A stretch of DNA of 63,479 bases, the filler included, from Asterionella formosa (lineage: Eukaryota), in the NCBI GenBank assembly GCA_002256025.1. It is 9 parts of 9 records of this genome, joined end to end, with 100 filler letters (N's around TTAATTAATTAA, not from the genome) between each part and the next. Parts side by side here need not be neighbours in the genome. Positions count along the whole stretch, not along the records: positions 61,068 to 62,223 come from NKIB01004000.1; positions 62,324 to 63,479 come from NKIB01004001.1; 7 more parts are not named here. The stretch is one strand, 5' to 3'. The position numbers and the translations under genes are program-made. Numbering within the stretch: the stretch's first letter is position 1; each line of letters opens with the position of its first letter. Below are positions 2,527 through 63,479 of this stretch, piece by piece. The notes below the pieces were generated by a model, which worked only from the letters and a program-made list of their open reading frames with translations, was not told where the DNA came from and did not search any database.

Positions 2527-4534
2527 TTATGCCAGAATTCTATCCAGGTCCATGGCAGTTACTCGAGGGCTGATAAATCGAGCTGGTTGGCGTTTGTCCA
2601 ACTCTTGTCCAGATTTTGGAGCCAACGGGTGCTTCTTCTTTTGTCGCTTCAGTTCAATGTAAAGCTCATCGGCATCATTCAACAGGTCTTTACGGATACG
2701 ATCAGTCCCTTCCTTCGGTAATTGAATCATCTTCTCCGAGGCCGCCGCCGATGCTTGATACGCAATGGCAGGGTGAATATGAAACTTGAGTGTTGATAGT
2801 TCCCAAGCGGAAGTAGCATTTGGGTTTGAGTGTTCCGGATCTTCCACGTCAGGAGTATAGGCACCTGAAGTAATCACATCCAGCTCGTTCTCAAGGAGTT
2901 GATGTACCGATGGGTATCGATGAATGAGTTGTCGAACAAACGCCATAAGTGGTGCCGAGGTCGTCGCTGGTGCGTGCAGACAAACCGTGCATAGCTGCTT
3001 CATAAAGGCTGCGACTCGAATGGCTGAATACTCACGACGCTTGATAAAGGCAGCATGAAGACATTTAAGTGCAATATCAGTGTGGTCCCTATTTCCCTGT
3101 TCATTCGTGAGTCGAGCCAGCTGACTATATAGGGGCGTTATGTATTCCTTCTGATCAATCTTAAGCTCTCGGCCAGGCCCTTGTAATGTTTGAAACGAAG
3201 TCNNNNNNNNNNNNNNNNNNNNNNNNNNNNNNNNNNNNNNNNNNNNNNNNNNNNNNNNNNNNNNNNNNNNNNNNNNNNNNNNNNNNNNNNNNNNNNNNNN
3301 NNNNNNNNNNNNNNNNNNNNNNNNNNNNNNNNNNNNNNNNNNNNNNNNNNNNNNNNNNNNNNNNNNNNNNNNNNNNNNNNNNNNNNNNNNNNNNNNNNNN
3401 NNNNNNNNNNNNNNNNNNNNNNNNNNNNNNNNNNNNNNNNNNNNNNNNNNNNNNNNNNNNNNNNNNNNNNNNNNNNNNNNNNNNNNNNNNNNNNNNNNNN
3501 NNNNNNNNNNNNNNNNNNNNNNNNNNNNNNNNNNNNNNNNNNNNNNNNNNNNNNNNNNNNNNNNNNNNNNNNNNNNNNNNNNNNNNNNNNNNNNNNNNNN
3601 NNNNNNNNNNNNNNNNNNNNNNNNNNNNNNNNNNNNNNNNNNNNNNNTTGGCGTTAGCAGCAGTTGCTAGTTTGGCAGCTTGCGCTTCATCTACATGAAC
3701 TCTTAATGGCAAGGAAACAAAAGTTCTCAAAACGGCAGCCCTGATTCTGAATTGCTTGTCCTTGGCTAATTTAGCCACCATTCTTGCAGCTTCTAGCGCT
3801 ACTTCACCTTGAGTGTCAGTTGAAAATATATGCTGAATTGCGGCGCAACACGAATCAGCGACTTCGTCGCACTGTCGATGATTCATTTGACGAATGACAA
3901 CGGATAAAATATTCGACCGAAAATTGAAATGCGGAGCTGATTTCAAGAGTTCACACAATGCCAAGATGCAAGTCATGCCAAGCGGCTTGGACGGGTCTTC
4001 TTTCTCGTTATCCCAAGTTTTTTCTAGTAGTTTGAGATATGACTGGTAGTGATGTAGGAGGGCTCGTTCATAGTCCCACAGTTTCTTGGTTTCTTTCCCA
4101 ACCTTGACAGCCATTTCAGCAGCAGTCGGAAGGCGAATTCTGTAAGAAGGTAGAATATCCTGGAAAATTGCCAACAAAGACATGACAGCAAGTCTGGCGG
4201 TGTATTCTTCTGTCGTCGACTTGGAGTCTGCCGCAACTTGAATGAGTCGTTTCATTTTTGATTCTCCCAAGTCAGAAAACGCAGTTGCCGGATCTTCCAA
4301 AATAGATTCACTCAATTCTGCAATCATGTCGCACTTTTCCTCTACGGACATTTCTTCTAGTAGATTGTATTCTATCGGTACCGGCGCCTTTCGATACGGC
4401 TCGTCGGACGCTGACGGCGGAGCCCTGGCTAGCTTCTTGGCGCCTTTCTTACCCACTGCCTTTCCTTCCTGATCATGTCTAGGCTTCCCCTGCTTTTTGT
4501 CTATTGTGGGTTTCCCCTGCTTTTTGACCTTCAT
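2527..4534 (-). CDS. NOC3: Nucleolar complex protein 3 (NOC3; Noc3p + CBF/Mak21 domains), interrupted by assembly gap 3203-3647
   Basis: 5' part: LAIFQDILPSYRIR..KLWDYERALLHHYQSYL..PHFNFRSNIL. After the gap the frame reads TSFQTLQGPGRELKIDQK..HAAFIKRRE..RVAAFMKQL..YTPDVEDPEHSNPNATSAWEL..HIHP, matching the NOC3 C-terminus. ORFs 3161..4534 and 2527..3003 are one gene. Confidence 0.9.
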
Positions 4535-5233
4535 GGTGCTGTGACACTGTCTTGACCTTGTTGGATGGCGAATTATTATCTGGATTTGTTGCTTTCAACA
4601 ACCACCATTGGGATTTTGATCCAGCTTGTTTTTGCTTTTATTTGCATGGATCTATTTTTTTCAACGAATTAAAGAAATTTCTTACTACATACAATCAGCC
4701 GAGATGTTGCGTTTCATTTGGTTGGCTGATGATGATGATGGATTTCTCTGTCCATCATTGGTACCTGTTTACCTTGTACCCTGGTACCAGGTACCTGACC
4801 ATATGGTGTGACGGACGCAGGTACCAGGTACCAGTTATCAAGTGCGTAGAATTAAATTTATTTACAGTTCCAGAGGAAGGTCAGGTAATCGAAAGATTTA
4901 GCTAAATCTTTTCATAAGTTTGAAACTTGTTTTACCGGACCTTATTACAGTTAGTACATTTTCAGTAGAACTACCAGGTACGAGGGTATTGTTAGCACGA
5001 CAGTTGTTATCTCCTAGGCTGTTTCTTGCTGATGTTGTATGTGTGACTCACGTCTTCTGATTTCGAAACAACTGTGCCTCTGGTGACGACGACGAAAGAA
5101 CCAAAGTCAAGTCCGAACACCAGTACCGGTATGATATATATATTTACATAATAATAAATAACGGAACAAAAGAGGCAATCATATCACTTCCTCAGGAACC
5201 AAATTTTTACAGAAGAACTTGAAACACGCCACC

Positions 5234-6048
5234 ATGAACAACAGCAGAGTTTGCCATTTCAAGTTAGTTCTGTTGGGGGATACCGCTGTCGGAAAGTCCT
5301 GTTTGGTGGTTAGATTCGTGAGAGATGAATTCTTTGAGTTTCAAGAGCCAACCATTGGAGGTAAGCGACGAGGAAGGGACAAACGAGTTTCACGACCCAC
5401 GAAGAATTCACTGCTGCATGTACCAACGGCCACGTAGCTTCTACGAAGGCCCAGGCTGATTTCACGAAATAACATTAAAAGTTGTTGCTCGATCTATTTG
5501 TCAACCATCTTGGCTCACCCCTCTCCCTCGCTTGCTTTGAACGAAATTTCATTCAATTAACGCCATGCAAAAATATTTGCATATTTGCAGCTGCCTTTTT
5601 GACTCAAACAGTGGCTCTCGACGACTCTACTGTCAAGTTTGAAATCTGGGATACCGCTGGACAAGAGCGCTATCGTTCGTTGGCGCCCATGTATTACCGT
5701 GGAGCTGCAGCTGCCATTGTAGTCTACGACATAACCAACCCAGACTCCTTCACCGGAGCTAAATCTTGGGTCAAGGAGCTGCAGAGACGAGGAGATCCCA
5801 ATGTGGTGATTGCCCTGGCTGGGAACAAGGCGGATTTGGAAAATCGACGCAAGGTGGAGTTTGAAGAAGCCAATGCTTACGCAGAAGAGAATGGAATCTT
5901 GCACTTGGAAACATCAGCGAAGAATGCTAATAATGTCAAATCTCTCTTTGTGGAGATTGCGAAGAAACTCCCAAAGAGCCCGCAGCAGCCAGAACGAGAA
6001 GCCTTTCCGATTATGCCACCGCAGCAAGAGAGTCGAAGCTGTTGCTAA
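5234..6048 (+). CDS. RAB5: Rab5-family small GTPase; exons 5234-5360 and 5591-6048
   Basis: GDTAVGKS P-loop; effector QEPTIG|AAFLTQ restored by a GTAAGC...TTGCAG intron (5361-5590, 230 bp); [25 protein letters not shown]-terminal CC prenylation motif. Confidence 0.95.
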
Positions 6049-6695: not shown

Positions 6696-8528
6696 TTATG
6701 CTAGAAATGTGTCCAAATACTTTTGCAACACTTCTGCATTGAACTCTTGGCAAATGTAGTATCCCAGCCAAAATTCCCGTTTCTCCATTTGAAGCACCTC
6801 ATCATTCACATGGAACTGCTTTAGAACATCATGATACCGGCACATATTTTGATGTGCAATAGGGTCCTTGTCGTCAATTGTTACAAACAAGATATGAGAT
6901 TCAACAAGATCCATGTGAATTGCCAAGGTTTCAACCACATTTTTCACTAGCGTCATCTCCTCTTGCCCGTTTGGAGGTCGAACGCCATCAGTAAACCAGA
7001 ATTCTTCCATAGTTTTCTTCCAATCAAAGTACCCACCTCGTCGCAATATTCCAATTAGTCGAGTAGGAACAACATGCGGGACTCGGTGACCCAAGTAACG
7101 CTTGACAACATCCACCTCCACTTGAGTACATGGGAAGGCCGCCTTGCCATGTTCCTGTTGAAATTTGGTGGCCAGGGCCTTGGCACAAATACCGACTGGG
7201 TCGTACTTTGAGCTAGACATCAATTGACTTTCTAAACAATCCATAGACGTGTCTACAGAATCCTCAAAATCATCATACCCATCATCATCCTTGCCGTACG
7301 TGAGTCGGCCCAACAATAACCCTGCTAAATTCAAGTCAAGCAATCTTGCGTCAATCAGTACTTCTTTCCAAATAGTGGAATACTTTTGTTTCAACAACTC
7401 GTAATCATCAATTCGACCATGCCAGATCGGAATCGAGTGAATATCCATGCCAAACAGGGCAGGGAGATGTGAGCCAATCTTCCCATCTGTACCCCATGTA
7501 GTGACATATTTGCCATGTATGTAAACTTTTCCCATTTGTTCCTCCTCCAACAGCAATGACTGCTGACTTGGCTTGGCCAAAACAGACTCGGTTGACCACA
7601 AAAAGGTGTGCTTGAGCTCATTGGCATAGTAGTGGAAGTTTGGCAATTGTTCCAAGGACACGCGTAGGTTCCCACCTAAGGAAAGGATCATTTTGGTTGT
7701 GTTTTGCTTTTCAGCATGATCCGTGACGGTGACACACAGAGACTTGACAAAGGGATCATCCAATGTTTTGTCTGGATTCCATCTAGGAATTCGTCCATCC
7801 GATAAGGTGGCATCCATCAGGTCAAACTTGTATTTCTTGCCTCGCACCGAAAAAACTTCCAGAACGTATTTCGCGTTATGATCATACATCGCTGCCAGTG
7901 CTCCGTATTTGACGTCGTCGTCGAGGGAAAAGCCAAAACTTAGCATGGACAATTCTTCTGCTTCAATGGCCTCCTGATTGCCAGTTGGCGGTAATGATCT
8001 ATATTCCACTTCAGCCTTGAACAAGACTGTCTCCGGCATATCTTCGTCAACATCTTCGTCTGCATCCATTTCCTCATGTGTCAAGAGCTCCCTGGAAGTG
8101 AAGCAAAGCGCAATTCTTCCCAAAACGTTCCCATTGGCTCTCCAATCCCCGACAACCGACGTCGGCTCTCCCAAAAACAGGAACGCTTCTTGGCAATAAT
8201 GGTGCTGGAATCCCAACTTCTGAAGCTGTGTGGGAAGCTGATCCTTTTTTGTCTCCACAAACCTTCCGTGCAGTGGGTCGTGGCTGAGATGAACGTCTCG
8301 GAGGGTCCACTGTCGGGGCGCAACAGTCTGCCGGGCATAGTTCACACTGGCCAACATGGTGTGGTGGATGATCGCCTTGAGGCCGTCCAATACTCCGCGG
8401 GTCAGTGGGATTGCCATATGAGCCATGCTGCTTAAGCTCAAGGGGACAGCTTCGGTGAAGGATGACCGAGAGGAATTCGCCTTGGCCAGCTTCATCAGCC
8501 CATTGCGTTGCTTCTCCAAGTCGGACAT
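6696..8528 (-). CDS. Hypothetical protein, 610 aa (possibly a degenerate GHKL-ATPase-like N-terminus)
   Basis: Long uninterrupted ORF with globular composition. Motifs GKVYIHGKYV and LFGMDI. No confident family. Confidence 0.75.
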   Translation of the reverse strand: MSDLEKQRNGLMKLAKANSSRSSFTEAVPLSLSSMAHMAIPLTRGVLDGLKAIIHHTMLASVNYARQTVAPRQWTLRDVHLSHDPLHGRFVETKKDQLPTQLQKLGFQHHYCQEAFLFLGEPTSVVGDWRANGNVLGRIALCFTSRELLTHEEMDADEDVDEDMPETVLFKAEVEYRSLPPTGNQEAIEAEELSMLSFGFSLDDDVKYGALAAMYDHNAKYVLEVFSVRGKKYKFDLMDATLSDGRIPRWNPDKTLDDPFVKSLCVTVTDHAEKQNTTKMILSLGGNLRVSLEQLPNFHYYANELKHTFLWSTESVLAKPSQQSLLLEEEQMGKVYIHGKYVTTWGTDGKIGSHLPALFGMDIHSIPIWHGRIDDYELLKQKYSTIWKEVLIDARLLDLNLAGLLLGRLTYGKDDDGYDDFEDSVDTSMDCLESQLMSSSKYDPVGICAKALATKFQQEHGKAAFPCTQVEVDVVKRYLGHRVPHVVPTRLIGILRRGGYFDWKKTMEEFWFTDGVRPPNGQEEMTLVKNVVETLAIHMDLVESHILFVTIDDKDPIAHQNMCRYHDVLKQFHVNDEVLQMEKREFWLGYYICQEFNAEVLQKYLDTFLA

Positions 8529-9489
8529 GTGTGGCTTTGATTCCTTCTTGTTTGGGCAAAGCAGAGTACCCGGTTGACGCGCTCACAGCGATTGCAATAG
8601 GATGGACTGCCGGTATATGTAGCTTCAATGTCTTGATGGAGGAAGTGTTTAGTAACGGTATAACCGTGCGGTTGTAGAAACAGAAAAGCTATATTACTAC
8701 TACCCAAATGCATTGAATTTACCTGTGTATTAAAAAACATGGTGGTGAAAAAATATATATCAAATATTGGTGTGGTGGGAAACAGGACTTCGATGTTGAT
8801 AGAGCTATTATTATTTTGAGATGCGATTGACCGTCCCCGTTGTTTATCTACGGGAAATGCATGTGCGTCATCCCATTCATTATGTACAACTCGTAGGAAC
8901 TATTCTAAACTGATATACCGGTATATATGCATGCACAGAATAATAGACAACCGGAATGCTTTTACACATGTTTTTGTAATATACTGGCAATCCCACCCTA
9001 GCTACCGGTATCGTCTTGCTTTTCGATGAGAACTATGGTGGGTGTAAGTAATTTTTTTTAATCGTTAAGTAAATGTTTTTTAGAGGCAATATGAGGCAGA
9101 GTGCTTTTTTCGGCAGTCAATTTTAGATTGGAGCAGGGACCAAGGAACAACGTCAGGAGTATGTACCGGTACCGGTATACATATAGAATTTTCATGCGGA
9201 AGCAGCCACATAAAAATGGATGGAGCCACAAACATGTATGAGAAATACCAGTAGTAGTCACACAAGAACAATTGTAGCAAGCATCGAAAAATTCGAGATG
9301 ATGTTTTTACACAACCAAAGTACGAAACGGAAATCGAAAGCTAAGGCGTGAAAATGACAAGCAGGGCAGGGAGTAGAATAATAAGTGTAAAAGATAATGG
9401 GTCAGAGGAAAAATCATGTGAAAATTTGTCAACACATTTCCATTAACAATTGTCCACTCACACTTTTTTGTCATTGCAACGAAATTTCA

Positions 9490-14274: not shown

Positions 14275-17200
14275 ATGAAGACCCCGCAATCATGGAAAGC
14301 ATGCTCTGTTGCTAGCCTTATGACACTCATGATGCTCCTACCAGCAAGCATTACAGCGCAAGTTCATTTCCCATTCGCTCATCAAGCGTCAATTTCTTCA
14401 TTCGCCGGACAGGATCTTCCTGCTCAGGACAGATCCGCGAGCGCTACATTAGTATTGACTCATAGCTCTACGGAAGTCAATGCGAAAGCAGTCGAACGGA
14501 ATCTGGGCAGCACAAGTAGTCCAAGCGGAATCTCTGCTCCTACAGAAGCTCCGGTTTCTGGCCCTACTGCAGGTTTTCCCGTTATCTCCACGACAACGGT
14601 GCCTGTGACTGTTCCTGCTGGGTCACAATCGACAGGCGCTCCCAGCAACTCTCTTTACCCCTCCTTAGAGGTCGTTGAAGGCCCAATGTTCTTTTCGAAC
14701 ATTCCAACAGTTGGCGCTTTGACAGCGAATCCGAGTAAATTGACGCTGCTCCCGAGCAGTGATTTTCCCACGTTTAGCCCTTCAACTTTGACTCCAGCAC
14801 CACATAGGAGCAAGCCATCGAAGCACCCAACTCTGAAACCAACCAAACGTCCGCGGACACCTAGGCCTTTTAGTAATAGCCCGAGCGGACCAAGTCCTGA
14901 ACCAACTGTACAGACGACGCCAAATCCATCGTTCGCTGTTACTGCTCAGCCAACACCAAGTCCATCGTTCGCTGTTACTACTCCGCCAACACCAAGTCCA
15001 TCGGTCGCTGTTACTGCTCAGCCAACACCAAGTCCATCGGTCGCTGCTACTGCTCAGCCAACACCAAGTCCATCGGTCGCTGCTACTGCTCAGCCAACAC
15101 CAAAGCCCTCGCGAAGACCATCGAAAAGTCCAACAGGAAATCCCACTGGCGGTCCAACATCGACTTCGCCCACACCCGTACCTGTAGCCGTCGGAAGTCC
15201 GACAGGAAATCCAACATCGACTTCGCCAACACAACGACCGTCCAATTTCCCAACTTCAAAGCCGTCGTTTGGCCCCACCGATAAACAAACCCCTGTTCCT
15301 ACCGATAGTCAGCGGACATCAACGCCGTCAGTGCTCATAACAGTTGGCCCAACTGCTGTTGTCACAACGTTTCCCTCGTTTGCTCCGCAGTTGTTTCCGA
15401 CGACTCGTCAACCTACCAAAGACCCCACGCCAGTGCCAACGGATCCACCCTCTCCTCGACCAACACCAAAGCCGACAAACAAGCCAACGTTGAGCCTATC
15501 AACACCTGTGCCGACATACATATCCCCGGGAAGTACAGCTACACCCACCACCCTATTGTCAACGCCAAATCCAATAAACGCTCCAACTTTTAGCCTATCA
15601 ACACCTGTGCCGACATACATTTCCCCGGGCAGTACTGATACCCCCACCACCCTACCGTCAACACCAAATCCAATAAACGCTCCAGCGGCGAGCCTATCAA
15701 CACCTGTGCCGACATACATATCCCCGGGTAGTACTGATACTCCCACCACACTACCAATACCTTCGAATGGCCAGACAATTGCACCCAGTTCAGAACCATT
15801 GCCATCACCTATTGGAAGTCCCTCGGATCCTTCATCGACTCCCCCGACTCTCAACCTAACACCATCACCAACCCAGTTCCCCTCTGTCCCCACAAGTGTC
15901 ACTCCAATGTTGCCTACCCCGACTTTTTCTCCTAGTTCCTTTACGACCATTCCACCATCTTCAGCATCACCGATCCTTGACCCTCCCGGGCCTTCGAGCT
16001 CCATGGCACCGATGCCTACAGTAACGGAGGCACCCTTGAATTCCCCTACTCCACCTTCGCCCAATGGACCGACCATGCCAACTGCAAGTCCGATCGTGGA
16101 CTCTCGTTTCCCTCTTATGCACTTGACACAAGGGAATAACACCATGAATATTTCTCNNNNNNNNNNNNNNNNNNNNNNNNNNNNNNNNNNNNNNNNNNNN
16201 NNNNNNNNNNNNNNNNNNNNNNNNNNNNNNNNNNNNNNNNNNNNNNNNNNNNNNNNNNNNNNNNNNNNNNNNNNNNNNNNNNNNNNNNNNNNNNNNNNNN
16301 NNNNNNNNNNNNNNNNNNNNNNNNNNNNNNNNNNNNNNNNNNNNNNNNNNNNNNNNNNNNNNNNNNNNNNNNNNNNNNNNNNNNNNNNNNNNNNNNNNNN
16401 NNNNNNNNNNNNNNNNNNNNNNNNNNNNNNNNNNNNNNNNNNNNNNNNNNNNNNNNNNNNNNNNNNNNNNNNNNNNNNNNNNNNNNNNNNNNNNNNNNNN
16501 NNNNNNNNNNNNNNNNNNNNNNNNNNNNNNNNNNNNNNNNNNNNNNNNNNNNNNNNNNNNNNNNNNNNNNNNNNNNNNNNNNNNNNNNNNNNNNNNNNNN
16601 NNNNNNNNNNNNNNNNNNNNNNNNNNNNNNNNNNNNNNNNNNNNNNNNNNNNNNNNNNNNNNNNNNNNNNNNNNNNNNNNNNNNNNNNNNNNNNNNNNNN
16701 NNNNNNNNNNNNNNNNNNNNNNNNNNNNNNNNNNNNNNNNNNNNNNNNNNNNNNNNNNNNNNNNNNNNNNNNNNNNNNNNNNNNNNNNNNNNNNNNNNNN
16801 NNNNNNNNNNNNNNNNNNNNNNNNNNNNNNNNNNNNNNNNNNNNNNNNNNNNNNNNNNNNNNNNNNNNNNNNNNNNNNNNNNNNNNNNNNNNNNNNNNNN
16901 NNNNNNATCTTCCTGAAACGTCATCGGAATCAGCAAGTGATGGAAACGTTTTACAATGACACCGTGTCCAAGGGCAGTTTTTCGCATCTTAATACATTGG
17001 AGGCAACGATGGCTGTGGCTGAGAATGATTATATGTCTCATGTTGATGCTAAATCTGACGCGGATGTCTCAACATTGGGTGATCCCGTTCCGCCGCGATC
17101 AAATGATATCGACCAAAGGTCGTTGGACGAATCTATTTGCTCTTTGGATTATGACTTTGAACGTCAATATGTCAATGATGTTGTTTCCGCGTGTGATATT

Positions 17201-18616: not shown

Positions 18617-18729
18617 GATGCTTACTGAANNNNNNNNNNNNNNNNNNNNNNNNNNNNNNNNNNNNNNNNNNNNTTAATTAATTAANNNNNNNNNNNNNNN
18701 NNNNNNNNNNNNNNNNNNNNNNNNNNNNN

Positions 18730-19060
18730 ATATTACATGAAGTGACCATCACGTAACAAATTAGCCTAGTTGATTTTGAATGGATCACATGAATTAGTTG
18801 AATACATCAAAATGCTTACTTGAATATATCTATATATTATCTGAATACATCACGTTAATTATTTGATCAGAGTATCATGCATGCATTCCTGATCAGCACT
18901 ACATTACGTGACCACCTTCACATAATTATTTGAAATACTTCACGTAATTATTTGAAATACTTTAATTAATTCTGTAATTTAGTTCACATTGCCTTGTAAT
19001 TTTGTTCAGGTAATTCTATAATATAGTTCACATAATGTATTAAATTTGTTTACGTAATTT
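18730..19060. repeat. Dispersed AT-rich repeat (probable TE subterminal region); inverted copy at ~56290-56597
   Basis: About 270 bp align with the reverse complement of 56290-56597, including gtatcatgcatgcattcctgatca and the 22-bp unit cttcacataattatttgaaata. Confidence 0.85.
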
Positions 19061-36580: not shown

Positions 36581-38530
36581 ATATTTTTTCGTATTATGAA
36601 ATTGAAATTACAAGAAACAAGGCGAAGGGTCTAATCTAAGTCGACCCCCAAAATTGCATCCAGCCATATACAGTAGTACAGCCACCATGCTGACCGTTGG
36701 TATGCTGTACGAAAAATGCATGCGTATTATGTATAACCACACCCAAATACATATGGACAAACCCACGTATGTAAGCCGTACGAAACATAAAAAATCGCTC
36801 TGGAACTCGCTTGTTATAACAGCTACCGCACAAGGTACCATTATTCCAGTACCTGGACCGTCTAATAACCGACAAAGTACATCTACGTTATTTATAAAAA
36901 TTATGATCATATCGAGATATTAAAAAAAATTTAATATAAAAACTTTTTATATGCATTGTACAGCTTTTCTATTGTAAGTACAATATTTAGGGGAATTTCA
37001 CAGAAGATCATAGGCCTTTTAGGGGGATCTCGCCGGATCGAAATGATCATATCCCTTCATGGTTATTATGTTTCAGCGATACAGTACTTCCTTTCTCCAA
37101 AATCTCGCTCACATTTTGCTTGGTTGTTTCTATTGCTCTGGATTAAAGAATTTGTTGGGTCTGTTCTCGAGGATACATAAAAATCATACCATTATTTTGT
37201 TTCACCATGTTTTGTCAGAGTTCTGAAAGGCCATTCAATTGCTATTCAGTTTCCGCCATGAACGAGAGTAATGAAGGTGATTTGACAAAAGTGNNNNNNN
37301 NNNNNNNNNNNNNNNNNNNNNNNNNNNNNNNNNNNNNTTAATTAATTAANNNNNNNNNNNNNNNNNNNNNNNNNNNNNNNNNNNNNNNNNNNNTATTTGC
37401 ATGCATGGCTAATACATTTGAAATCATGTTTACATATTCTTGTTGATGCATACACTTCCTGAAAAGAAAGATCACATCAGCCACACGACAACAACTGGAG
37501 TGACTCCTCGTCATCACAGAAAGGATGCATCTGAAAATTCGCGAAACATATGGGAAGGTGTCAATTTTTTGTTGAATGGAAGTGTTTCATTGTTGTTGTT
37601 GAGCCTGTGCTGTTGGCCCCGAATTTTCCACTCTTTTCAGCACAGTTCAAAAACCCAAGTTCCTTTCTTCAGTTTCTTGCCAGATCCTATATCCTGACAA
37701 AATATGTATGGTTTCACCTAGCCTATAGTGGAGGTTCTGAAGTTGCCCTGTTGTCCAGAACAATGCCTCCTCTTTTAGGTAGACCTGGTGCCTGTTGTCC
37801 GCCTCAACCCCTGGAACCCTACAGGGACTACCGGTTCATAAACTACAGGAAATAGGCAGGCGGTGAGTTCTGAAATCGAACCTGCCACATCAGAAGGCGT
37901 ACACCACTCCCCCGCTTTTTACCTGCGGTTGGTATACTGTAGCAGAGAAATATTACAATGTGCCCCAGGTAAGCAAAGTCATTCAATTGTGAACAAGCAC
38001 AGTATGGTGGAAATATGTATGACCAATACATATGTATGTTGAACAACCCATGCATGGATTTATACCGGGCAGCCAACAGCTACCTGGCTGGTACCTGGTA
38101 CCAGACAGCAGTAAAACCAACAGGGTATGAAATTAATTATATAGCGCACATTAGTAGAATTAAACATTTGGTAAACGTTTTTTCTCTGTGTCCGGCAACG
38201 AATGGGTTTGTCGTGATTTGCAATGCAGTTGTTTATATCGTGATCCATTTATCCTTTACTACTAGACTGCACAGTACTAACTACATATATATGTGTCCAC
38301 CGATATACCAATTACCGGGTATAGCAACCGGTATACCGGTAGTCTAGTCCATTTTGTTACGCATGATCGCTCAAGACATGCATATATTTCTGTGCTCACA
38401 ATATATTCCTCTGGCTCACTTTTGCAGAAACTTCAGAATTAAACTCTCTGTAGCCTTAAATCTTCTGGGCTGCGCTGTTATCTTCACGACTGCACATTCA
38501 ACTCATATTTTTATATTCCGAGAAATTAGA

Positions 38531-52330: not shown

Positions 52331-55239
52331 CCACTTACAAGCACTAGAGTTAGAAAGCTAGATGCAACCAATATTGAACGACAGTGCATAANNNNNNNNN
52401 NNNNNNNNNNNNNNNNNNNNNNNNNNNNNNNNNNNNNNNNNNNNNNNNNNNNNNNNNNNNNNNNNNNNNNNNNNNNNNNNNNNNNNNNNNNNNNNNNNNN
52501 NNNNNNNNNNNNNNNNNNNNNNNNNNNNNNNNNNNNNNNNNNNNNNNNNNNNNNNNNNNNNNNNNNNNNNNNNNNNNNNNNNNNNNNNNNNNNNNNNNNN
52601 NNNNNNNNNNNNNNNNNNNNNNNNNNNNNNNNNNNNNNNNNNNNNNNNNNNNNNNNNNNNNNNNNNNNNNNNNNNNNNNNNNNNNNNNNNNNNNNNNNNN
52701 NNNNNNNNNNNNNNNNNNNNNNNNNNNNNNNNNNNNNNNNNNNNNNNNNNNNNNNNNNNNNNNNNNNNNNNNNNNNNNNNNNNNNNNNNNNNNNNNNNNN
52801 NNNNNNNNNNNNNNNNNNNNNNNNNNNNNNNNNNNNNNNNNNNNNNNNNNNNNNNNNNNNNNNNNNNNNNNNNNNNNNNNNNNNNNNNNNNNNNNNNNNN
52901 NNNNNNNNNNNNNNNNNNNNNNNNNNNNNNNNNNNNNNNNNNNNNNNNNNNNNNNNNNNNNNNNNNNNNNNNNNNNNNNNNNNNNNNNNNNNNNNNNNNN
53001 NNNNNNNNNNNNNNNNNNNNNNNNNNNNNNNNNNNNNNNNNNNNNNNNNNNNNNNNNNNNNNNNNNNNNNNNNNNNNNNNNNNNNNNNNNNNNNNNNNNN
53101 NNNNNNNNNNNNNNNNNNNNNNNNNNNNNNNNNNNNNNNNNNNNNNNNNNNNNNNNNNNNNNNNNNNNNNNNNNNNNNNNNNNNNNNNNNNNNNNNNNNN
53201 NNNNNNNNNNNNNNNNNNNNNNNNNNNNNNNNNNNNNNNNNNNNNNNNNNNNNNNNNNNNNNNCCATGGCACATCAATGTGTCTTCATCTTCTTTAGAAG
53301 TTAATTAATTTCGACAGGGCCATGCTTGGAGCACTCCTGCTGTAGTTCTGTTTCGACAAGCTGGAATCAAGTGTATGGTAAGCCAACATGTACTGGTGAG
53401 CTCCTCAAGAAAATTTGTTATTCACGCTCCTATAATCACTTCTTCTGAAAGACATGTTCAAACACTTGTCATGAAATTCGATTTTCCCTTCTTCTCCTTC
53501 AGTGCCAGGTTCCGGTACTATGTGCCTTTGAGTCCCCAGCTATCTCGGCATGGCATTTTGAATTTAGCATTACTTTGACTCCAAGTTTGGTCCCAATATA
53601 TTGCAATTTGCCTTGCTCATTCATGAAGTCAGAACACAAAGACATCAGATGTCAAAGACTGGTGTTGCTCTTTATTAGGCAAAATGCATCTTTTTGACCA
53701 GTAAGTGTGTAGTTATTGCTTTTCTAATTTCCTTCTGGACAAACTGCCGAAAAGCACAGGCCAACAAGAAATTTATACTTCTCTGTATCAGCATGAAGAT
53801 TTCGAATTCCAAGCAATTGTTACCGGCATCTCCCCCTTCCACTAAAAATTTCCAATGGTTGGGGTATCTATTGATTGATTCGAAAGTTCAGGAAAAAAAT
53901 CCTTTGACATTGGCTTCATCTTCATACTTTGCTTTGGGAGCAAATAGTGCCCTGTCTTCCAATAATCTGTTTGGGCAAGTCTATGCTTGCTCTAGTATAT
54001 TATCCAAAATTGTTGATTCTGATTGAGGTTGATTTAAAGGCTTCAATGGAAGGAGCATCAGCTCTTTTGTTGAGTGATCCAACTTCAATAATACCCATCA
54101 CCTCTCCAGTTCAAATTTGCCTTGAACCCCCTAATAGTCGCTTCGTGACGCTATTATTCAGAAAAGAAGCGACATTAATGTTCTTGGAAAAAGGAGCAGT
54201 AGAAAAATTCCTAGAAAATAAATATAGGTTGTAACAGATTCTCTTGCCTTGACAGTTGGCTCTATAGAAGTCCACCACTGTGCCACTTGGAATGGTGATT
54301 CGATTATTGGTGGGATCACAGGACATTGAAGGGTAGCACTTGTTCATGTATGTCATCAATGTTTACGTAGTTAATAGCATCTTTCTTCCAACATCGTTTT
54401 GTTCGTTCATGTAGTGAATGAGGAGGTCGGCCAGAATCCAGCATCCACATAGTGATCGCTCTGCCATCACCAACATAACTTCTCCCAAACAACTGAAAGT
54501 TTGCTGTCTTATGTTTTGCGGTTTGGTTTCCAATAGGCACTATGATTACGGTCCTAATGCTATGTCAAAAAACTAAAGGGAAGCAAAGGGAGCCAACCAA
54601 ACGCAATCAACATGGTGATGGTTGTCACAACAAGAGATTTGTCATGCAAAAATATTTAGCTATTTTTTAGAAATAATGGTTTGTACCAGGCCCACGAAAG
54701 CTACTATAAGTTCTTTGATTATACACCCAGCCATTGTGTGGGCGAGCAAGCAGGATATTGATCATACAATCACCGGGATTCCAGTCCGCTGGTGTACCAG
54801 GTAGGGAGAACTTAAATAAAAGTGGCTTTGAGCCACTAAACAATATAATATTCACAGTGTTAGTAAAACAAAGTTTTTTCTGATGTTACGCCAGATACAA
54901 CATGCCAGGTATCTTGTAGTCGATTAGCTCTTGTGTTTTAGTTAATCAGGTAAATGTATCAGAAAATGGCAATTGGCCCAAAACTTGCAAAAACAATATT
55001 ATTCCATTGAGCCAGCATCTCCCGGAAATGCATGTATACATGTGTGAAGAAAACTTAAGATCTAATAAACATTTAGTTGCATTTAACTGCCATGGACCAT
55101 GTACTATAGCAATAAATCAAACAATTAGTTACTCTTATTAAATAATGCAAAAGTTCTTGAAGGCCAAAAAAAGAAATATTTATTAGTCAGAGACCATAAT
55201 TCACTTCAGAAATTGCTTCCAACACAACACAAAATGAAG

Positions 55240-55940: not shown

Positions 55941-56289
55941 NNNNNNNNNNNNNNNNNNNNNNNNNNNNNNNNNNNNNNNNNNNNTTAATTAATTAANNNN
56001 NNNNNNNNNNNNNNNNNNNNNNNNNNNNNNNNNNNNNNNNGTCCGGAATGAAAGTTGTTCTGGTAAGATTACTGCGCTATTTTGACGGCTATATAAGCAA
56101 CGCTACTGATAACTCACACTGATCTTCCTCTACATTCAATTGACATTGCAGCAAACCCTTTCAGTGAAGGAGCATTCGCATGCCGTTCCGAATGAGCAGG
56201 CTTTATTTCATTAATGAAACTCTTCAATTTAGTTGAATGAGCTCCAGAAAATTACGTAAACAAATTTAACACATTAAGTGAACTTTATT

Positions 56290-56597
56290 CTAGAATTATG
56301 TGAACGAAATTACAGAATTACGTGAAGGATTTCAAATAATTATGTGAAGTATTTCAAATAATTATGTGAAGTATTTCAAATAATTATGTGAAGTATTTCA
56401 AATAATTATGTGAAGGTGATCACATAATATAGTGATGATCAGGAATGCATGCATGATACTTTGATCAAATATTTAACGTGATGTATTCAGATAATATATA
56501 GACATGTTCAACTACGTATTTTGATGTATTCAACTAATTCATGTGATGCATTCAAAATCAACTAGGCTTATTTACGTGATGGTCACTTCACGTAATA
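56290..56597. repeat. Second (inverted) copy of the 18730 repeat, with a 4x 22-bp tandem array
   Basis: (tatttcaaataattatgtgaag)n at ~56328-56415, expanded relative to the 18.9-kb copy. Confidence 0.85.
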
Positions 56598-58044
56598 CGC
56601 GGCTTAGATGTAAAGTCAACAGTTAATATGATAGTATTATACAGTGGATAGGATCTAAGTAGGTATATGGATGCATTGATATGTACATCACTATAATATG
56701 ATTTGTGACATGGATTGATGCCTATCACATACCGGTATCCTCAACAACCAGCCATCACGTTCATTGTTGTGTCTTCTTTCGTTGTCTTAGCTATATATAT
56801 GCCGGCATGTGTATTGTGTCAACACTACGCTGGCGGAACATGCATATTACACTGTGCTCTGTTCAACAATTACTACACTCGGTTACCATCACACCAGTTT
56901 CACCTCCACAAGCGCCGCAAAAAGCTCCGCGTTTTCCTTCCACTGTTTTACATCATAGTCTTCTGGCCGTTTGACAACTTTCCAAATGGCATTTCATGGA
57001 TTTCATGGAAAGGATCAGTCAAACAAGAAACGAGACTTAATGGAAACAATATAGTTTCGATTATCATTTTTATTATTCTTGTATTTTTATCAACGTTCGC
57101 TTGTTAGTTTTTGGTCCCACCCGATTAGTTTCCATAAATTACGTGGAGGCATGGCAACATAAAAATTATCTTTCCGTATCTGTTCCAAAACTTCTTGNNN
57201 NNNNNNNNNNNNNNNNNNNNNNNNNNNNNNNNNNNNNNNNNTTAATTAATTAANNNNNNNNNNNNNNNNNNNNNNNNNNNNNNNNNNNNNNNNNNNNACA
57301 AGAGCACTTACGCAATTTGGTTTTGTTTTGTTTTACATTGGTGCTCCCCAACAAGCGAAACGAGCTGTTGAATCAACTGAGAAAAAAGGAAATGTGGCTG
57401 CGTTTAGTTAACAATTTGTTGTTGTCCTGCCTGCCTCCCAACGATTGTCATCCAAGTACCACATTGATGGCTTCATTACCTTAAACATTCTCCATCCTTC
57501 GAAGGCGCAATGTTTCGAAGTCACAATGTTTTTCGTTATGTATTGCGTAAACTTTCTTTGCTTGTCATGTCCTTTACTACGACGTATCTTTTCATGAAGC
57601 AGCAAGCATTGATTGTTAACGTGACAGAACGATTTGAAAAATATATATGCCATGAATATAGTAATAAAATTTGTAAATATATATATATATAGCGTAATAC
57701 ATTTTATAAAATTCAAAGGCACTCTCGATATGGAACATCTGATATGGTTGAGATGGCCATACTTGCATATACATAATTCGAAAATACTCAATGCACTATA
57801 TGTCCATTGTTTTCCACGACTACGTGTACCGGTATTATCTCTGAAATTTGTTTGCATCGATATTTTCTACGTCCGTTGAAACTAATTATTTAGACCGTTC
57901 AAATGCCCCTTTTTTGGGCGGGAGCTCTTCATGTGTACCGGTACATCATATGACAATAACAATGTATCATTTATACATACAGGGTACCAGTAGCAGGTAG
58001 TAAGTGATATACTGGGGGTAGTCGGAGTAGTACCGGTAAACTAG

Positions 58045-58362
58045 CAACAGAACACCATATGTTCAGGACTGTTGCTACTGCAGTGGGACAGTAAATCATC
58101 ATAGTTTTAGGATCGTATGATCGTAAAACTAAAAACCAATAGAACACGAAATGTCTATGACTGCTGCTATTGCAGCGGGACAGTAAATCATCATAATTTT
58201 AGGATCGTATGATCGTAAAACTAAAAACCAATAGAACACCATATATTCAGGACTGTTGCTACTACCGTGGGACAATAAATCATCATAGTTCTAGGATTGT
58301 ATGATCGTAAAACTAAAAACCAATAGTCGTAGTAATAAGCGAGCAACAGAACACCATATGTT
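58045..58362 (+). repeat. Minisatellite, 92-bp unit x3 plus a partial fourth
   Basis: Units start at 58049, 58141 and 58233 (agaacac...ggac..taaatcatcata.tt.tagga..gtatgatcgtaaaactaaaaaccaat). Partial agcaacagaacaccatatgttc at 58342. Confidence 0.92.
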
Positions 58363-58554
58363 CTGGCATACCTACCCGGTAGTTATCATAATATTGCTTT
58401 TATGAATTTAACTGGCGCGATAATTAGCCAGGCTGACGAGTTACTACCGGTACCNNNNNNNNNNNNNNNNNNNNNNNNNNNNNNNNNNNNNNNNNNNNTT
58501 AATTAATTAANNNNNNNNNNNNNNNNNNNNNNNNNNNNNNNNNNNNNNNNNNNN

Positions 58555-58889
58555 AACGTCATTACCTGACAGTTCCCAAAGAACACCAAGAGATGTTAAA
58601 GGCAAACAACAACTATAAAGCATTCTACCAGATGACTATGGAGGATCTCCATGACAGTGACATTCCTGAGTATAGGCGACTTGATAAAAAAAGATTCAAG
58701 AAATATTTCATTGAGTGCTATGCTGAGACATTGGGCAATTTCTCTGCTTACAATATAAGGGAACGAGCTTGCCATACTGAGGAGCTGAACAGAAGATATG
58801 CTGCTGCAAGAGAAGAAAATGTTCATCTACCTTATGAACATTACCTTACTACGGGTAGTAGTGTTCGGAGAAATATGATGCAGATCTAA
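58555..58889 (+). CDS. 3' fragment of an unknown ORF, truncated by a gap
   Basis: Open frame from the contig edge to the stop at 58889 (LHDSDIPEYRRLDKKRFKKYF). Family not recognised. Confidence 0.3.
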
Positions 58890-58989
58890 CCGTAACACAT
58901 TTACCTAGCTGTTAGTAAATGATAACTAATTTCGTATCTATGAAACAATGCATTTGCATAGGCTGTTATTTCTATATATATCCAACGTC

Positions 58990-59915
58990 TGCGCGTCCTG
59001 CCAATATCTACTCATTACCTCAATCGTTTCGACTGGTGGCATCGAGTAAAACATTTGCGAGAACAAATGGATCGATGGGATATTGATCACAAACAGGTAG
59101 AAACATTCATGACAACCATGTCAGATCCGTTCCATTGCAAATCTTCCTTCAATAGGTCAAACTCGTCATCCTTGAGCTTGCCTTCCAGTGGCATAGTAGG
59201 ACTGAAGCGCGTCCAGAAAGATACGCTCCTTTTCGGCTACTGTGAGACGAATGAGTTCCCCACTTTCCGGATCGACGACACAGTATTCCTCGTCAGGAAT
59301 GCATTCTTCTTCCTGCAAGTTAGTCTCAAAGAATCGTCTTGACTTGGCGTCGTAAGCGATTTCTCTCGTTCCGCTCGTAATGGTGATCTTTTCGTCGCTT
59401 CCTTCTTCGGCCATTAAAAGTGGACCAGCAACGGCCACACGACCAGCTGTTGTCGTTGTCTTCCTTAAAGTTCGATGCGCGTCCTGCCAATATCTACTCA
59501 TTACCTCAATCGTTTCGACTGGTGGCATCGAGTAAAACATTTGCGAGAACAAATGGATCGATGGGATATTGATCACAAACAGGTAGAAACATTCATGACA
59601 ACCATGTCAGATCCGTTCCATTGCAAATCTTCCTTCAATAGGTCAAACTCGTCATCCTTGAGCTTGCCTTCCAGTGGCATAGTAGGACTGAAGCGCGTCC
59701 AGAAAGATACGNNNNNNNNNNNNNNNNNNNNNNNNNNNNNNNNNNNNNNNNNNNNTTAATTAATTAANNNNNNNNNNNNNNNNNNNNNNNNNNNNNNNNN
59801 NNNNNNNNNNNCGAGGAGCAAAGGCCATTGGCAAAGTGGGGGCAAAGGCAGCCGCAGACGAGCTCGTCTTGGCCAGGACGGCAGCCGCAATGGCGCAAGT
59901 CCAAATGAGTTTCAT
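58990..59915 (-). pseudogene. PGRL1: PGRL1 (PGR5-like 1) homologue: truncated, frameshifted, partly tandem-duplicated
   Basis: ATG 59915 gives MKLIWTCAIAAAVLAKTSSSAAAFAP (signal + ASAFAP). Then CIPDEEYC..LTVAEKERIFLDALQSYY.., and in a shifted frame LKDDEFDLLKEDLQWNGSDMVVMN. 58990-59226 is repeated at 59475-59711. The TM/C-terminal half is absent. Confidence 0.8.
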
Positions 59916-61199
59916 CGTTGTGGTGGAAAACAGAAATACCGAATATCAGCAAAGTGCTTTCGTCAGTTTATTATGTTTGGACGGCGACGCTTGGCTGTAA
60001 CTTTGTTGACTGTAGTGAAACGAAATGGGCTGTCGTACTAACGGCACTTATTCATGTAACGAATGCGGTCAATGCTGGCTGATCGAGGGCTACAAATAAT
60101 GAATAAACAGAAACAGCTGACGGTGCTCATGATATTTATGATACATACCATATGTTTAATCCTTCCCTTTTATGTGTTCACCATACATAATTAACGGTAC
60201 ACACATTTGATACCTAGGGGGTACCTGGACCTGGTACCTGGTACCCAGGTACTGTGTATACCTACCGGTGTCATACATATGTTTTGCTTCTTTGTTGTAC
60301 GATTGGACGTTGTTTGCTGGGAAGAAAGAAGCGCGTAGATGCAATCGAGAAATTGCAGCGAAACAACTAGGGAGAAGACGGAAAAAACATAATAGTTAGT
60401 TTCTTCTAGAAGTTAACTAATACAATCACAAAGGTAGTTATCATAATCCCTTTACTAGCTAGTTAACTAATCGGATGTAATGATATGTCACAGCTTTCAG
60501 CGGACCGAGACAAAATGATTATCAGGATCCTTGTTTTGGGGGCTCGCTCAGGTCCAGCCATTGCTTCATTCATTTATTTAGGTTATCAGCTTTTCATGTG
60601 ACATGGGCTTGGGTACATTTTGGTTGCGTATCGGTATTCCACTTGGAAGTGAATGGCTGCCGGGATATCATAATTACTACCCTGGTACCTGGTACTCAGA
60701 GCCAAGTACCAGGTACCATAGCAGGTACTGCTCCAATTTAGTCCTGGTCTATTGAATACTCGGAGTACAGGTGCATTTTGTATTCTTACAACAGTGGTAT
60801 TCGTATATTTTACATAGACCGGTAGACAATCCTAACGGTACTACCGGTAGCGGTATGTCCGAGAGTCATGCACATTTTACATGAAATGAAATAACGCTAT
60901 AACTTCATTTGCTACATGAACTGATTGGTGTTGCTGAGTTGGGACTCCTTGTCCACCGACCATGACGNNNNNNNNNNNNNNNNNNNNNNNNNNNNNNNNN
61001 NNNNNNNNNNNTTAATTAATTAANNNNNNNNNNNNNNNNNNNNNNNNNNNNNNNNNNNNNNNNNNNNAAAACTTCACATGAAACAGTTAAAAGTAATCTT
61101 TTTTACGTGAAGAGTGGCATTAATGCATGTGAAGTACCACATAATTAACACTCATACGTAGACGAAATTTCGAAAAGTGGCGTATTTCGCGTCTTAGAT

Positions 61200-62223
61200 G
61201 TGGTTCATTGCTACATTTCCGACTAGGTATCCATCTTTTCTGGAATATCTCTTGATTTTGCGCATTTTTCGGTTGCACTTGATCTATTGCAAAACTGTCT
61301 GGTTCATAGTTACTTTTCCGCCAAGAAATGTTTTCTGGAATATCTGGACAAGCCCTTTTTAAAAAATCCCATTCTTTGGGGAAAGTCCGTTAATTGTATA
61401 ATGATTCCAGATTATGAATACTTCAATATTCCAAGTAAAAATTGATGAAGCACCTCCCATGGAGTTGCACCAAATAATTCTTTGGGGTCTCCAATAAAGA
61501 AATTGGTGCATCAGTGCAGGGATAATAGGGTTGTGAGAAATATGACAGCACCACTTGTTCCTTGTTGCGTATTTAGTATTGGATTGGTTAACACCCATTC
61601 TGTTGGGTACAAGATAACTTTCCATTGGAATAGGCAATTTTGTCAAGATATTCCAGTTGAAAGTTGCTTATGAGCATCAGATTCTTTCTGAAGTTCACAT
61701 TCAATATCTGGATTGTCAGTATCTTCAGTAGTCACTAAACAGTCCCTACAAAAATGTCGTCGATAGAATCCATTGTTACCACTCTGGAGTACAAGCCACG
61801 TACAAGCAAATACATAAGCAGGGAGGTACAGGGAACTCCGTACTTTCTCTTTACCGGTATTTGGAAAATTCCGTATGTGTATTGTGCACAGACCTCGCAT
61901 ATCATGCGAAATCCTAGTCATAGAATTGCATCATAAAGATATAATGGTGACCTACTACCAAGTAAAATGCTAAGTAGCTCCGTTTTTACAACATCCTTTT
62001 GTGTGTAGGCTGTACCTGGATCTTCTTGGCAAAATCGGAAGTTGGTAGGGTTTATAATGTCGTTTATTTCTCCGTTCTGAATGATTGGACCATTAATAGC
62101 AGCAGCATCATGATCTACTAAACTATCAAGGAATGAACCATTATCATAGTCATCGGCATCAAAACAAACTGTTTGAACGAAATCAATGGCTGCTGGCGAT
62201 TGTTTCAGGAATTTTGCAAGGGG
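61200..62223 (-). mobile_element. Decayed Plavaka-like transposase
   Basis: In 5'-3' order: ELLSILLGSRSPLYLYDAIL (61921-61980), FCRDCLVTTEDTDNPDIEC (~61700-61756), GDPKELFGATPWEVLHQFLLGILKY (~61415-61495). Stops and deletions between the motifs. Confidence 0.6.
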
Positions 62224-62323
62224 NNNNNNNNNNNNNNNNNNNNNNNNNNNNNNNNNNNNNNNNNNNNTTAATTAATTAANNNNNNNNNNNNNNNNNNNNN
62301 NNNNNNNNNNNNNNNNNNNNNNN

Positions 62324-63469
62324 AGGAGACTGGAGTCAGTGAATTCGTCAACTTTCATTAAAAAGAAGGGCGGAAAGAAGATTGGATGGCATGCACTTGT
62401 TATTGATCATAGCAATGTCAAGTTTGCTAGAAGCTTTGTTGATGAGGTTTGGCCTTCGAACCAATGTGACCGCATTAAACATCTCAACATTTTCTTACAA
62501 AAAGTTGCAGACGCGATGAAAACTGTTCATTTGATTATTGATGATGATTTCATGCTACAGATTGAAGGGACTCTATCTTCCAAGATATTTTTGTTGAATT
62601 TGTCTTTCCTCCCGGACCAATTTTTCGGAACAAAAGATTGTCCTTTTCTTGACCTGGGCTTTAAACAAATTTTAGGGAACCTCAGAAATGATGAGGCTAC
62701 CAATTCACTCATCAAGAACACATTCGGTTCTAAAACCATACTCTGTCGTGATTGCTATAGGCAAATGACAGGCAAGGTAATGTCATTGATTGCCTATGGA
62801 GCATTCACTGACAAGATGGTGATCTCGAATACATTACTTTCCAACAATATCGACATGTTTTGGAAAACTTTGTCTATGGTCATTCCCGGTTCTGTGCTGC
62901 AATCACTTGTAAGTGACACAACATATGTCAGGAAGAGTATGCCTCACACCTGTACATTGTTGCACACTGCTGTAAATCACTCAAATGTTTCTCAGGAGCC
63001 ACATTTTGACTATCAGCAGGCAGAACTGGTAGTCAATGACTTCGAAAAGTGCCTTCCTTGGGGATTGGATATGTCCCTAGGTGCTGGTGGTTTCTCTATA
63101 AATGTCTGGGATGGCGAGTCATTTGAGTCTAACCTCATTTTAGATCGAAAAGGTACAGGTAAAGCGGAATTCAAGCAACATGCCATGGAACATGTAAACC
63201 AACATGCGATGCTTCTTCGCATTCCCTTCAAGTACATCTTCTTAATGCGAGGTGATACAGTTCATGCAGGTGCTATGGATAATCACCTAAGCAATGGTGC
63301 ATTGAGACTTCACATGTATTTGTCGCCTGGTTCCACTCCAGAGCAAAACTCAGTTGCTATTTGCAAAAGATTCGGAAATGCCATTAACACAAAAGCAAAT
63401 GGTACAGAGCGTATCCCTCCATCACTAGTTTCGTTTTTGCTTGATTCCTATGGGGAAAGATGGAAGTAA
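62324..63469 (+). CDS. 2-oxoglutarate/Fe(II)-dependent dioxygenase domain protein (5' end in gap)
   Basis: About 380 open codons. QEPHFDY (HxD), IFLMRGDTVHAG (distal His), ALRLHMYL (putative 2OG-binding Arg): a double-stranded beta-helix pattern. Confidence 0.75.
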   Translation, partial: RRLESVNSSTFIKKKGGKKIGWHALVIDHSNVKFARSFVDEVWPSNQCDRIKHLNIFLQKVADAMKTVHLIIDDDFMLQIEGTLSSKIFLLNLSFLPDQFFGTKDCPFLDLGFKQILGNLRNDEATNSLIKNTFGSKTILCRDCYRQMTGKVMSLIAYGAFTDKMVISNTLLSNNIDMFWKTLSMVIPGSVLQSLVSDTTYVRKSMPHTCTLLHTAVNHSNVSQEPHFDYQQAELVVNDFEKCLPWGLDMSLGAGGFSINVWDGESFESNLILDRKGTGKAEFKQHAMEHVNQHAMLLRIPFKYIFLMRGDTVHAGAMDNHLSNGALRLHMYLSPGSTPEQNSVAICKRFGNAINTKANGTERIPPSLVSFLLDSYGERWK

Positions 63470-63479
63470 GAATTTTTTT

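Follow-up and report, generated by a model that had tools for sequence, protein, structure and literature searches.

We analysed a window of 63,479 nucleotides (nt) of DNA from the diatom Asterionella formosa, in which positions 61200 to 63469 had been flagged as a 2-oxoglutarate (2OG) and Fe(II)-dependent dioxygenase gene standing head to head with a decayed, Plavaka-like transposase. The best explanation that we can offer is that the two contigs concerned are probably fragments of a repeated multi-gene transposon of the Plavaka type, related to EnSpm/CACTA, which carries an Fe(II)/2OG oxygenase without a family name. The flagged stretch itself consists of two unrelated contigs of 1,156 base pairs (bp) abutted via an artificial spacer. 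In its intact form, the element would encode on one strand a Plavaka transposase (open reading frame 1, ORF1), followed by the 457-amino-acid (aa) ORF2, a spliced ORF3 and ORF4. The plus-strand frame of the window is the last 381 codons of ORF2, and the minus-strand piece joins 302 nt of the transposase N-terminal region to a decayed and distant transposase-like relic. Coordinates are collected in Table 1.

Artificial joints and the intact locus

A scan of the whole window revealed eight identical spacers, N44-TTAATTAATTAA-N44, which cut it into nine pieces of, in order, 18629, 18564, 18547, 1157, 1157, 1157, 1156, 1156 and 1156 bp. As these sizes descend, the pieces look like scaffolds listed by length, and because TTAATTAATTAA provides a stop in all six frames, the spacers are recognized as artificial scaffold joints. 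The transposase-like piece 8 (61068-62223) and the oxygenase piece 9 (62324-63479) are separate 1,156-bp contigs, and since an artificial spacer stands between them, their order and orientation across the joint are uninformative. The divergent, head-to-head adjacency proposed in the initial annotation is a concatenation artefact; on the intact locus described below, the transposase and oxygenase genes are co-directional. This entails a methodological warning: adjacency across N...TTAATTAATTAA...N spacers is meaningless, and findings that lean on such joints are unsafe.

The proposed link between a transposase and a dioxygenase was recovered on a contig from elsewhere. Metagenome contigs were scanned with an eight-row alignment of the ORF2 family (A3), yielding three loci (L001, L002 and L003). 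L001 is a metagenome contig of 8,552 bp with all listed genes on one strand, and both genes lie on it co-directionally. By DNA comparison, L001 or L002 is matched by five of the six small contigs in the window, and these matches indicate that the five are pieces of one repeat family. In piece 9, 1154 nt correspond to L001 4045-5198 at 99.6% DNA identity; in piece 8, nt 855-1156 correspond to L001 1025-724 at 99.7%, and tblastn gives 99% identity over residues 66-166 of the L001 transposase (P0069).

The intact transposase P0069 matches the Pfam Plavaka profile (PF18759) with an E value of 1.1e-10 and 41.7 bits (cut-off 26.3), its residues 208-501 aligning to profile positions 34-320 of 325. 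Like the Plavaka/EnSpm-CACTA transposases, ORF1 thus scores above the gathering threshold over nearly the whole profile. When read by eye without a reference alignment, it appears to have the motif order D...D...C(2)C...H..H-E, with GDAEG, CRECDC and LHSIHEG following one another. ORF1 lies outside fungi, and the window has only residues 66-166 and a decayed, divergent relic. The earlier identification of a Plavaka transposase consequently stands for the intact relative, which passes the PF18759 cut-off, but not for the window's own fragment, which has no Pfam match.

On the minus strand of piece 8, an open stretch (PLAKFLKQSP...SPLYLYDAIL) is followed by a frame change at about 61921/61922 and then by a second frame, which is interrupted by three in-frame stops and includes CRDC..TDNP and GATPWEVLHQFLLG, in agreement with the decayed frame and the motifs first reported there. 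When the middle 829 nt of the piece are read through, with X at stops, BLASTP aligns its residues 49-78 with 407-438 of P0069 (E 0.005) and 145-171 with 475-501 (E 0.003). These alignments are weak but in order, covering the C(2)C region and then the H..H-E region of the intact transposase. The relic has CRDC, and it has LLG in place of the HEG of P0069, with Leu where the catalytic Glu would be. As judged from sequence, it is probably the relic of a distant Plavaka-like paralogue, which in our reading was joined to the young 302-nt fragment through rearrangement or mis-assembly. A word-based search, which is weak evidence, found no longer homologues of the 96-aa piece or of the 193-aa read-through of piece 8.

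Fold, family and expression of the oxygenase

In piece 9, the plus-strand frame (P0001) is already open at the first base (62324) and runs for 381 codons until it reaches a stop at 63467-63469; it contains PHFD (62999-63010), GDTVHAG (63251-63271) and LRLHMYL (63302-63322). The uninterrupted frame with an HxD...H...R arrangement described at the outset is therefore real, with all three quoted motifs present. The window copy is without the first 76 codons of ORF2 because the contig ends there. A word-indexed search found 10 relatives, the closest of which (P0002) has 457 aa and 99% identity (E 3.4e-258), and such a full-length relative excludes chance as the origin of the frame.

In an alignment of the family (A1), H303 is conserved in 23 of 24 covering rows, D305 in 22 of 23, H390 in 24 of 25 and R404 in 23 of 23. 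The catalytic residues are kept down to about 17-25% identity and, in the model, are placed on strands in the usual order. Conservation and predicted strand position together argue for an H-x-D...H iron triad and a 2OG-binding Arg; the usual layout of the superfamily suggests that R404 binds 2OG. Most likely, ORF2 would bind Fe(II) and 2OG and hydroxylate a substrate.

The full-length AlphaFold2 model has a mean predicted local distance difference test score (pLDDT) of 59.7, with blocks over residues 150-430 mostly at 64-87, and a second model, restricted to residues 64-381 of the window protein, has a mean pLDDT of 70.3 and a predicted template modelling score (pTM) of 0.76. In Foldseek searches of the PDB at E<=0.001, the full-length model gave at least 269 matches and the domain model at least 166. 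The top matches listed are all Fe(II)/2OG enzymes or annotated putative oxygenases and hydroxylases, and the matches listed include SnoN, OkaE, HalA, AsqJ, FtmOx1, AndA, the ethylene-forming enzyme, P4H and ALKBH1, with E values of about 1.5e-5 to 1e-4 and template modelling scores (TM-scores) of 0.35-0.54 by target. A structural search of the window protein, which had been suggested as a check, thus recovers the 2OG-Fe(II) oxygenase fold, and the HxD...H...R is conserved in the family.

A second comparison, with VIA-align, covered 48,161 representative chains and gives two values per chain, rows within 1 Z being ties. AviO1 (11.1 / 10.6), EvdMO1 (10.8 / 9.8), 6n1f (10.7 / 11.0) and AsqJ (10.7 / 10.1) are accompanied by PHD/P4H enzymes (about 9.4-9.6 / about 9.2-9.3), ALKBH1 (9.4 / 10.0), AlkB (9.1 / 9.1), FTO (9.1 / 8.8) and NMAD-1 (not listed / 9.1). 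The double-stranded beta-helix of Fe(II)/2OG oxygenases is a sound assignment for the predicted structure, and within that fold the structure comparisons of the model do not tell PhyH-like, prolyl-hydroxylase-like and AlkB-like clades apart.

Sequence profiles give the family no name. At E<=10, none of the 26 members of A1 matched Tet_JBP (PF12851), PhyH (PF05721), AlkB (2OG-FeII_Oxy_2) or any other Pfam 2OG family, a negative to be read with the fact that the HMMER filters drop most very weak matches; membership of TET/JBP, as raised earlier, accordingly finds no backing. The window frame itself matched no Pfam family at E<=10, and none of the 18 members scanned had a meaningful Pfam domain. 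NCBIfam returned nothing relevant for nine proteins, and a profile search of the PDB sequences with A1 gave a chance match only (E 1.5). No TET, JBP, NgTet or CMD1 structure is among the matches listed by Foldseek and VIA-align (about 50 rows per list). Among the language-model neighbours, which serve as a lead only, 15 of 30 are PhyH, alongside HalD clusters, at scores of 0.90-0.92. ORF2 is thus a small family without a database name, and such hints as there are lean towards a PhyH-like rather than a TET/JBP enzyme.

It differs from the known enzymes of the PhyH clan and the AlkB family. Unlike the PhyH-clan enzymes (AviO1, AsqJ, SnoN/SnoK, AndA, EasH, OkaE, FtmOx1 and HalA), to which its identity is 6-16%, ORF2 has no Pfam PhyH match, has an N-terminal extension of about 140 residues that is predicted to be helical and a long low-confidence insert (344-368), and probably sits in a transposon, not in a biosynthetic cluster. 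Unlike the AlkB family (AlkB, ALKBH1, NMAD-1 and FTO), it is without a Pfam 2OG-FeII_Oxy_2 match, and no nucleotide-recognition lid was identified in it; the AlkB-family matches also rank below the PhyH-clan matches in Foldseek.

An exhaustive HMMER search found 58 representatives of the ORF2 family at E<=0.001 among 1.84 billion, many of them fragments. The 90% cluster of P0002 has 116 members; all of them stem from metagenome or transcriptome-like collections and are either nameless or labelled "hypothetical protein". A search of viral contigs with A3 gave 13 pattern matches, none of which was confirmed. The copies on L001 and in P0002 are intact, whereas others are broken: in L002, 20 nt are deleted directly behind PHF, L003 has many stops, and frame shifts occur in L003, P0008 and P0018. 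Such a mixture of states is what a family of transposon genes shows, and not one host gene that was domesticated. The initial annotation had taken an open dioxygenase beside a decayed transposase as a sign of selection or domestication; as the transposase is intact on L001 and the oxygenase is broken on L002 and L003, the domestication reading was rejected. The window copy differs from L001 in five codons, one synonymously and four non-synonymously, which is too few for an estimate of the ratio of non-synonymous to synonymous rates (dN/dS).

The stretch was found in 20 of 24 listed sequencing runs, from 12 studies and including six RNA runs; one of the runs, X1, is likely to be the source. Most run labels are freshwater, lake or river metagenomes; one is an algae metagenome, and one bears the coded label organism A (run X6). 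Contigs of polyA RNA cover the whole of ORF2, namely 1415 nt over L001 3765-5179 in run X17 and 1833 nt over 3760-5598 in run X16. The ORF1 bins are empty in X17 but covered in the DNA run from that sample, which makes DNA carry-over unlikely. The ORF3 intron (71 nt, L001 6611-6681, with GTAAGT...AG ends) is absent from a polyA-RNA contig of X17, and this spliced contig indicates that the run holds real RNA. RNA contigs cover ORF4 in both X17 and X16. ORF2 is transcribed from its own unit.

Linkage to the element and alternative explanations

Transposon-borne dioxygenases have so far been described only from fungi, always as TET/JBP and in 11 transposon lineages including Plavaka (PMC12730594); the carriers given are Kyakuja-Dileera-Zisupton, Plavaka, EnSpm and others. 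For the green alga Auxenochlorella, PMC12633428 reports EnSpm-Plavaka elements. Our literature searches turned up no 2OG oxygenase carried by a transposon in diatoms or other algae. Like the fungal TET/JBP transposons, the present element has a Plavaka-type transposase adjoining a gene of the Fe(II)/2OG-oxygenase fold with HxD...H...R, and is multi-copy, with decayed copies and an expressed cargo. Unlike them, it has as its host an alga from freshwater samples, and its oxygenase is without a Tet_JBP sequence match and without TET structures among the neighbours listed; the ends of the element, furthermore, probably lie off L001.

We consider it quite likely that ORF1 and ORF2 belong to one element, in which case ORF2 would be a transposon cargo rather than a neighbour. 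Several observations weigh against this linkage or against the wider account built on it. The linkage rests on one short-read metagenome contig, L001, and no listed run contig bridges L001 3520-3765, where it must be said that cover gaps in contig-based runs prove nothing. Loose ends occur at L001 3723, 3789 and 3794, and the node of about 70 nt between them (3723-3794) is flanked by more than one sequence on either side; upstream of the equivalent of 3794, L002 carries another sequence and another ORF; and 82 nt from the 3' end of ORF2 are repeated where L001 ends. As the stretch just upstream of ORF2 is common to other contexts, chimeric assembly via repeats is possible. No terminal inverted repeats (in Plavaka elements TGT..ACA or CATCA..TGATG, with target-site duplications of 2-3 bp) or target-site duplications were found on L001, the element ends probably lying off the contig. 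The frame pieces of piece 8 and their read-through (P0068) matched no Pfam family at E<=10, PF18759 included; the shared 302 nt lie N-terminal of the Pfam domain. With regard to ORF2, the confidence of both models is middling, the TM-scores by query length are low (0.23-0.40), identity to solved enzymes is 5-16%, and no sequence profile ties the protein to a named 2OG family.

The observations around the node are also what favours an alternative in which ORF2 lies outside the Plavaka element, L001 being chimeric via shared repeats or the two genes being side by side by chance, and ORF2 belonging to another repeat or to a multi-copy host gene. The node, of 67-72 nt, has its alternative sequences in DNA as well as RNA runs, and the RNA of X17 falls on ORF2 and not on ORF1. 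We regard this alternative as unlikely, given that both genes are intact, co-oriented and 385 bp apart on one contig, and that all parts occur together at 96-100% identity in the small contigs of the window and also in run X6. Short contigs of X6 moreover span the node with both alternative flanks (31+67+40 letters), which in our reading leaves ORF1>node>ORF2 as the remaining path. Runs X1 and X6 have cover in all 30 of 30 bins of L001. Weak support comes from the joints 645>4553 (four contigs) and 327>4651 (one contig) in X1, which look like internal-deletion derivatives joining ORF1 to ORF2 but have sides of less than 30 letters. A further joint in X1, 3794>5208, removes ORF2 exactly, and the recurrence of the boundary at 3794 suggests that ORF2 may behave as a cassette.

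If ORF2 does belong to the Plavaka-type element, its role has still to be weighed. It could be a true TET/JBP enzyme that acts on DNA, oxidizing 5-methylcytosine or thymine, and would then be what stramenopiles have in place of the transposon-borne fungal genes. The HxD...H...R layout and the adjoining Plavaka transposase on L001 fit this, and the spacing of 14 residues between H390 and R404 is probably close to the H-to-R spacing of TET2. In fungi, TET/JBP genes travel in Plavaka and other DNA transposons, and some have diverged so far that they are detectable by structure comparison only (PMC12730594). We nonetheless hold a TET/JBP identity to be very improbable: the Pfam and PDB profile searches described above speak against it, the structural neighbours listed are PhyH-like, prolyl-hydroxylase and AlkB-like enzymes, and the language-model neighbours are PhyH and HalD. 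A less remote alternative, possible though not the one that we favour, is that the element captured a PhyH- or P4H-like hydroxylase of small molecules or proteins, which travels as a passenger without a role in DNA or chromatin marks or in the biology of the element. DNA transposons of the Plavaka/EnSpm-CACTA group capture host genes, and small-molecule enzymes of the PhyH clan and prolyl hydroxylases come nearest to ORF2 among solved folds and language-model neighbours; what argues against a passenger is that the ORF2 family has its own conserved helical region at the N-terminus, together with the absence of a detectable host paralogue family among the representatives and scanned members counted above.

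By analogy with the fungal TET/JBP cargo, ORF2 might instead help the element, for example by oxidizing a DNA, RNA or chromatin mark used in silencing. Extended further, an unnamed Fe(II)/2OG family, unrelated in sequence to TET/JBP, would be a regular cargo of algal Plavaka-type transposons and would oxidize such a mark to escape silencing, convergently with the fungal partnership and in a second eukaryotic supergroup; this broad version we put forward as a speculation with the odds against it. If the linkage seen on L001 is general, transposons of this kind would have recruited in algae another oxygenase, unrelated in sequence to the first, which would suggest that DNA transposons have repeatedly turned to oxidative enzymes against silencing. 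The value of the finding would rise sharply if the linkage is general and if nucleic acids or chromatin are what the enzyme acts on. Assays would then have a concrete target in ORF2, whose 457-aa protein is expressed and apparently intact.

Feature coordinates and further observations

Table 1. Features of the window and of locus L001, with window positions unless L001 is given.
Feature	Position	Strand	Description
Spacers	18630-18729, 37294-37393, 55941-56040, 57198-57297, 58455-58554, 59712-59811, 60968-61067, 62224-62323		N44-TTAATTAATTAA-N44
Spacer between pieces 8 and 9	62224..62323	.	Artificial, N44-TTAATTAATTAA-N44, non-genomic; parts piece 8 from piece 9
ORF2 copy	62324..63469	+	Last 381 codons and stop (residues 77-457) of the 457-aa ORF2; Fe(II)/2OG-oxygenase fold; 5' end cut by contig end
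H-x-D codons	63002..63010	+	H303 and D305 of the 457-aa protein, proposed iron ligands; in the model, on a short strand after the first long core strand
Distal His codon	63263..63265	+	H390, proposed third iron ligand; model strand 389-394
Arg codon	63305..63307	+	R404, proposed 2OG-binding Arg, 14 residues past H390; model strand 402-409
ORF1 fragment	61922..62223	-	302 nt, codons 66-166 of the 967-aa Plavaka-type transposase ORF1 (P0069); LLSIL..SPLYLYD motif; N-terminal of the Pfam domain
Relic	61093..61921	-	829 nt without DNA match on L001; decayed frame with CRDC and GATPWEVLHQFLLG
Tandem-unit match	61068..61092	-	25 nt, 100% identical to the 21-nt tandem unit at the L001 5' end (L001 22-46)
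ORF4 part, piece 6	58555..59298	+	Piece 6 nt 1-744, L001 7705-8471 at 96%; 3' part of ORF4, P0072 residues 141-249 at 99%
Piece 5 match	58365..58454	-	90 nt, L001 5859-5948 at 100%; between ORF2 and ORF3
Piece 4 match	56803..57039	+	237 nt, 96% to the alternative upstream region preceding ORF2 on L002
ORF1 (P0069)	L001 529-3432		967 aa, uninterrupted, Plavaka transposase
ORF2	L001 3817-5190		457 aa, uninterrupted, 385 bp downstream of ORF1, same strand
ORF3	L001 6079-6669 + 6684-7199		ORFs of 196 + 171 aa, exons of one gene; no Pfam or NCBIfam match
ORF4 (P0072)	L001 7287-8060		257 aa, no family match; N-terminus Ser/Thr/Pro-rich

The three large pieces of the window carry ordinary eukaryotic genes, including a DUS3L-like dihydrouridine synthase, CSTF2 and raffinose synthase. 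Pieces 1 and 3 contain longer runs of N (3203-3647, 16157-16906 and 52392-53263), which represent ordinary gaps within scaffolds. A 308-nt repeat (87% identity) is common to the start of the large piece 2 (18731-19036) and the small piece 4 (56295-56597), and its place at the start of piece 2 indicates that repeat copies border gene-bearing scaffolds too.

Other repeats occur within the small pieces. Piece 5 contains tandem repeats with a period of about 92 nt and 87-93% identity at nt 748-1029 (window 58045-58326). Piece 6 has an exact 236-bp direct repeat (58990-59225 and 59476-59711; nt 436-671 and 922-1157), the copies 486 bp apart and the second reaching the contig end, which may be a tandem duplication or an assembly loop. 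The 21-nt unit TTTTAAC[G/T]GTTTCATGTGAAG is found in tandem at the L001 5' end (units at 1-42, family D5) and recurs at the end of piece 8; it is possibly a subterminal repeat of the element and, possibly, a binding site of the transposase. Subterminal transposase-binding repeats occur in CACTA elements.

On L001, a palindrome of about 31 nt follows right after the ORF1 stop (3485-3515), and the contigs of run X6 break there. The 82-nt direct repeat (99%) occupies L001 5145-5226, spanning the 3' end of ORF2, and again 8471-8552 at the contig end. On L002 (1-711), the ORF2 frame extends upstream by about 237 more codons, through the different sequence joined at the equivalent of L001 3794, and cluster members of 474-487 aa may be the longer, L002-type form of ORF2.

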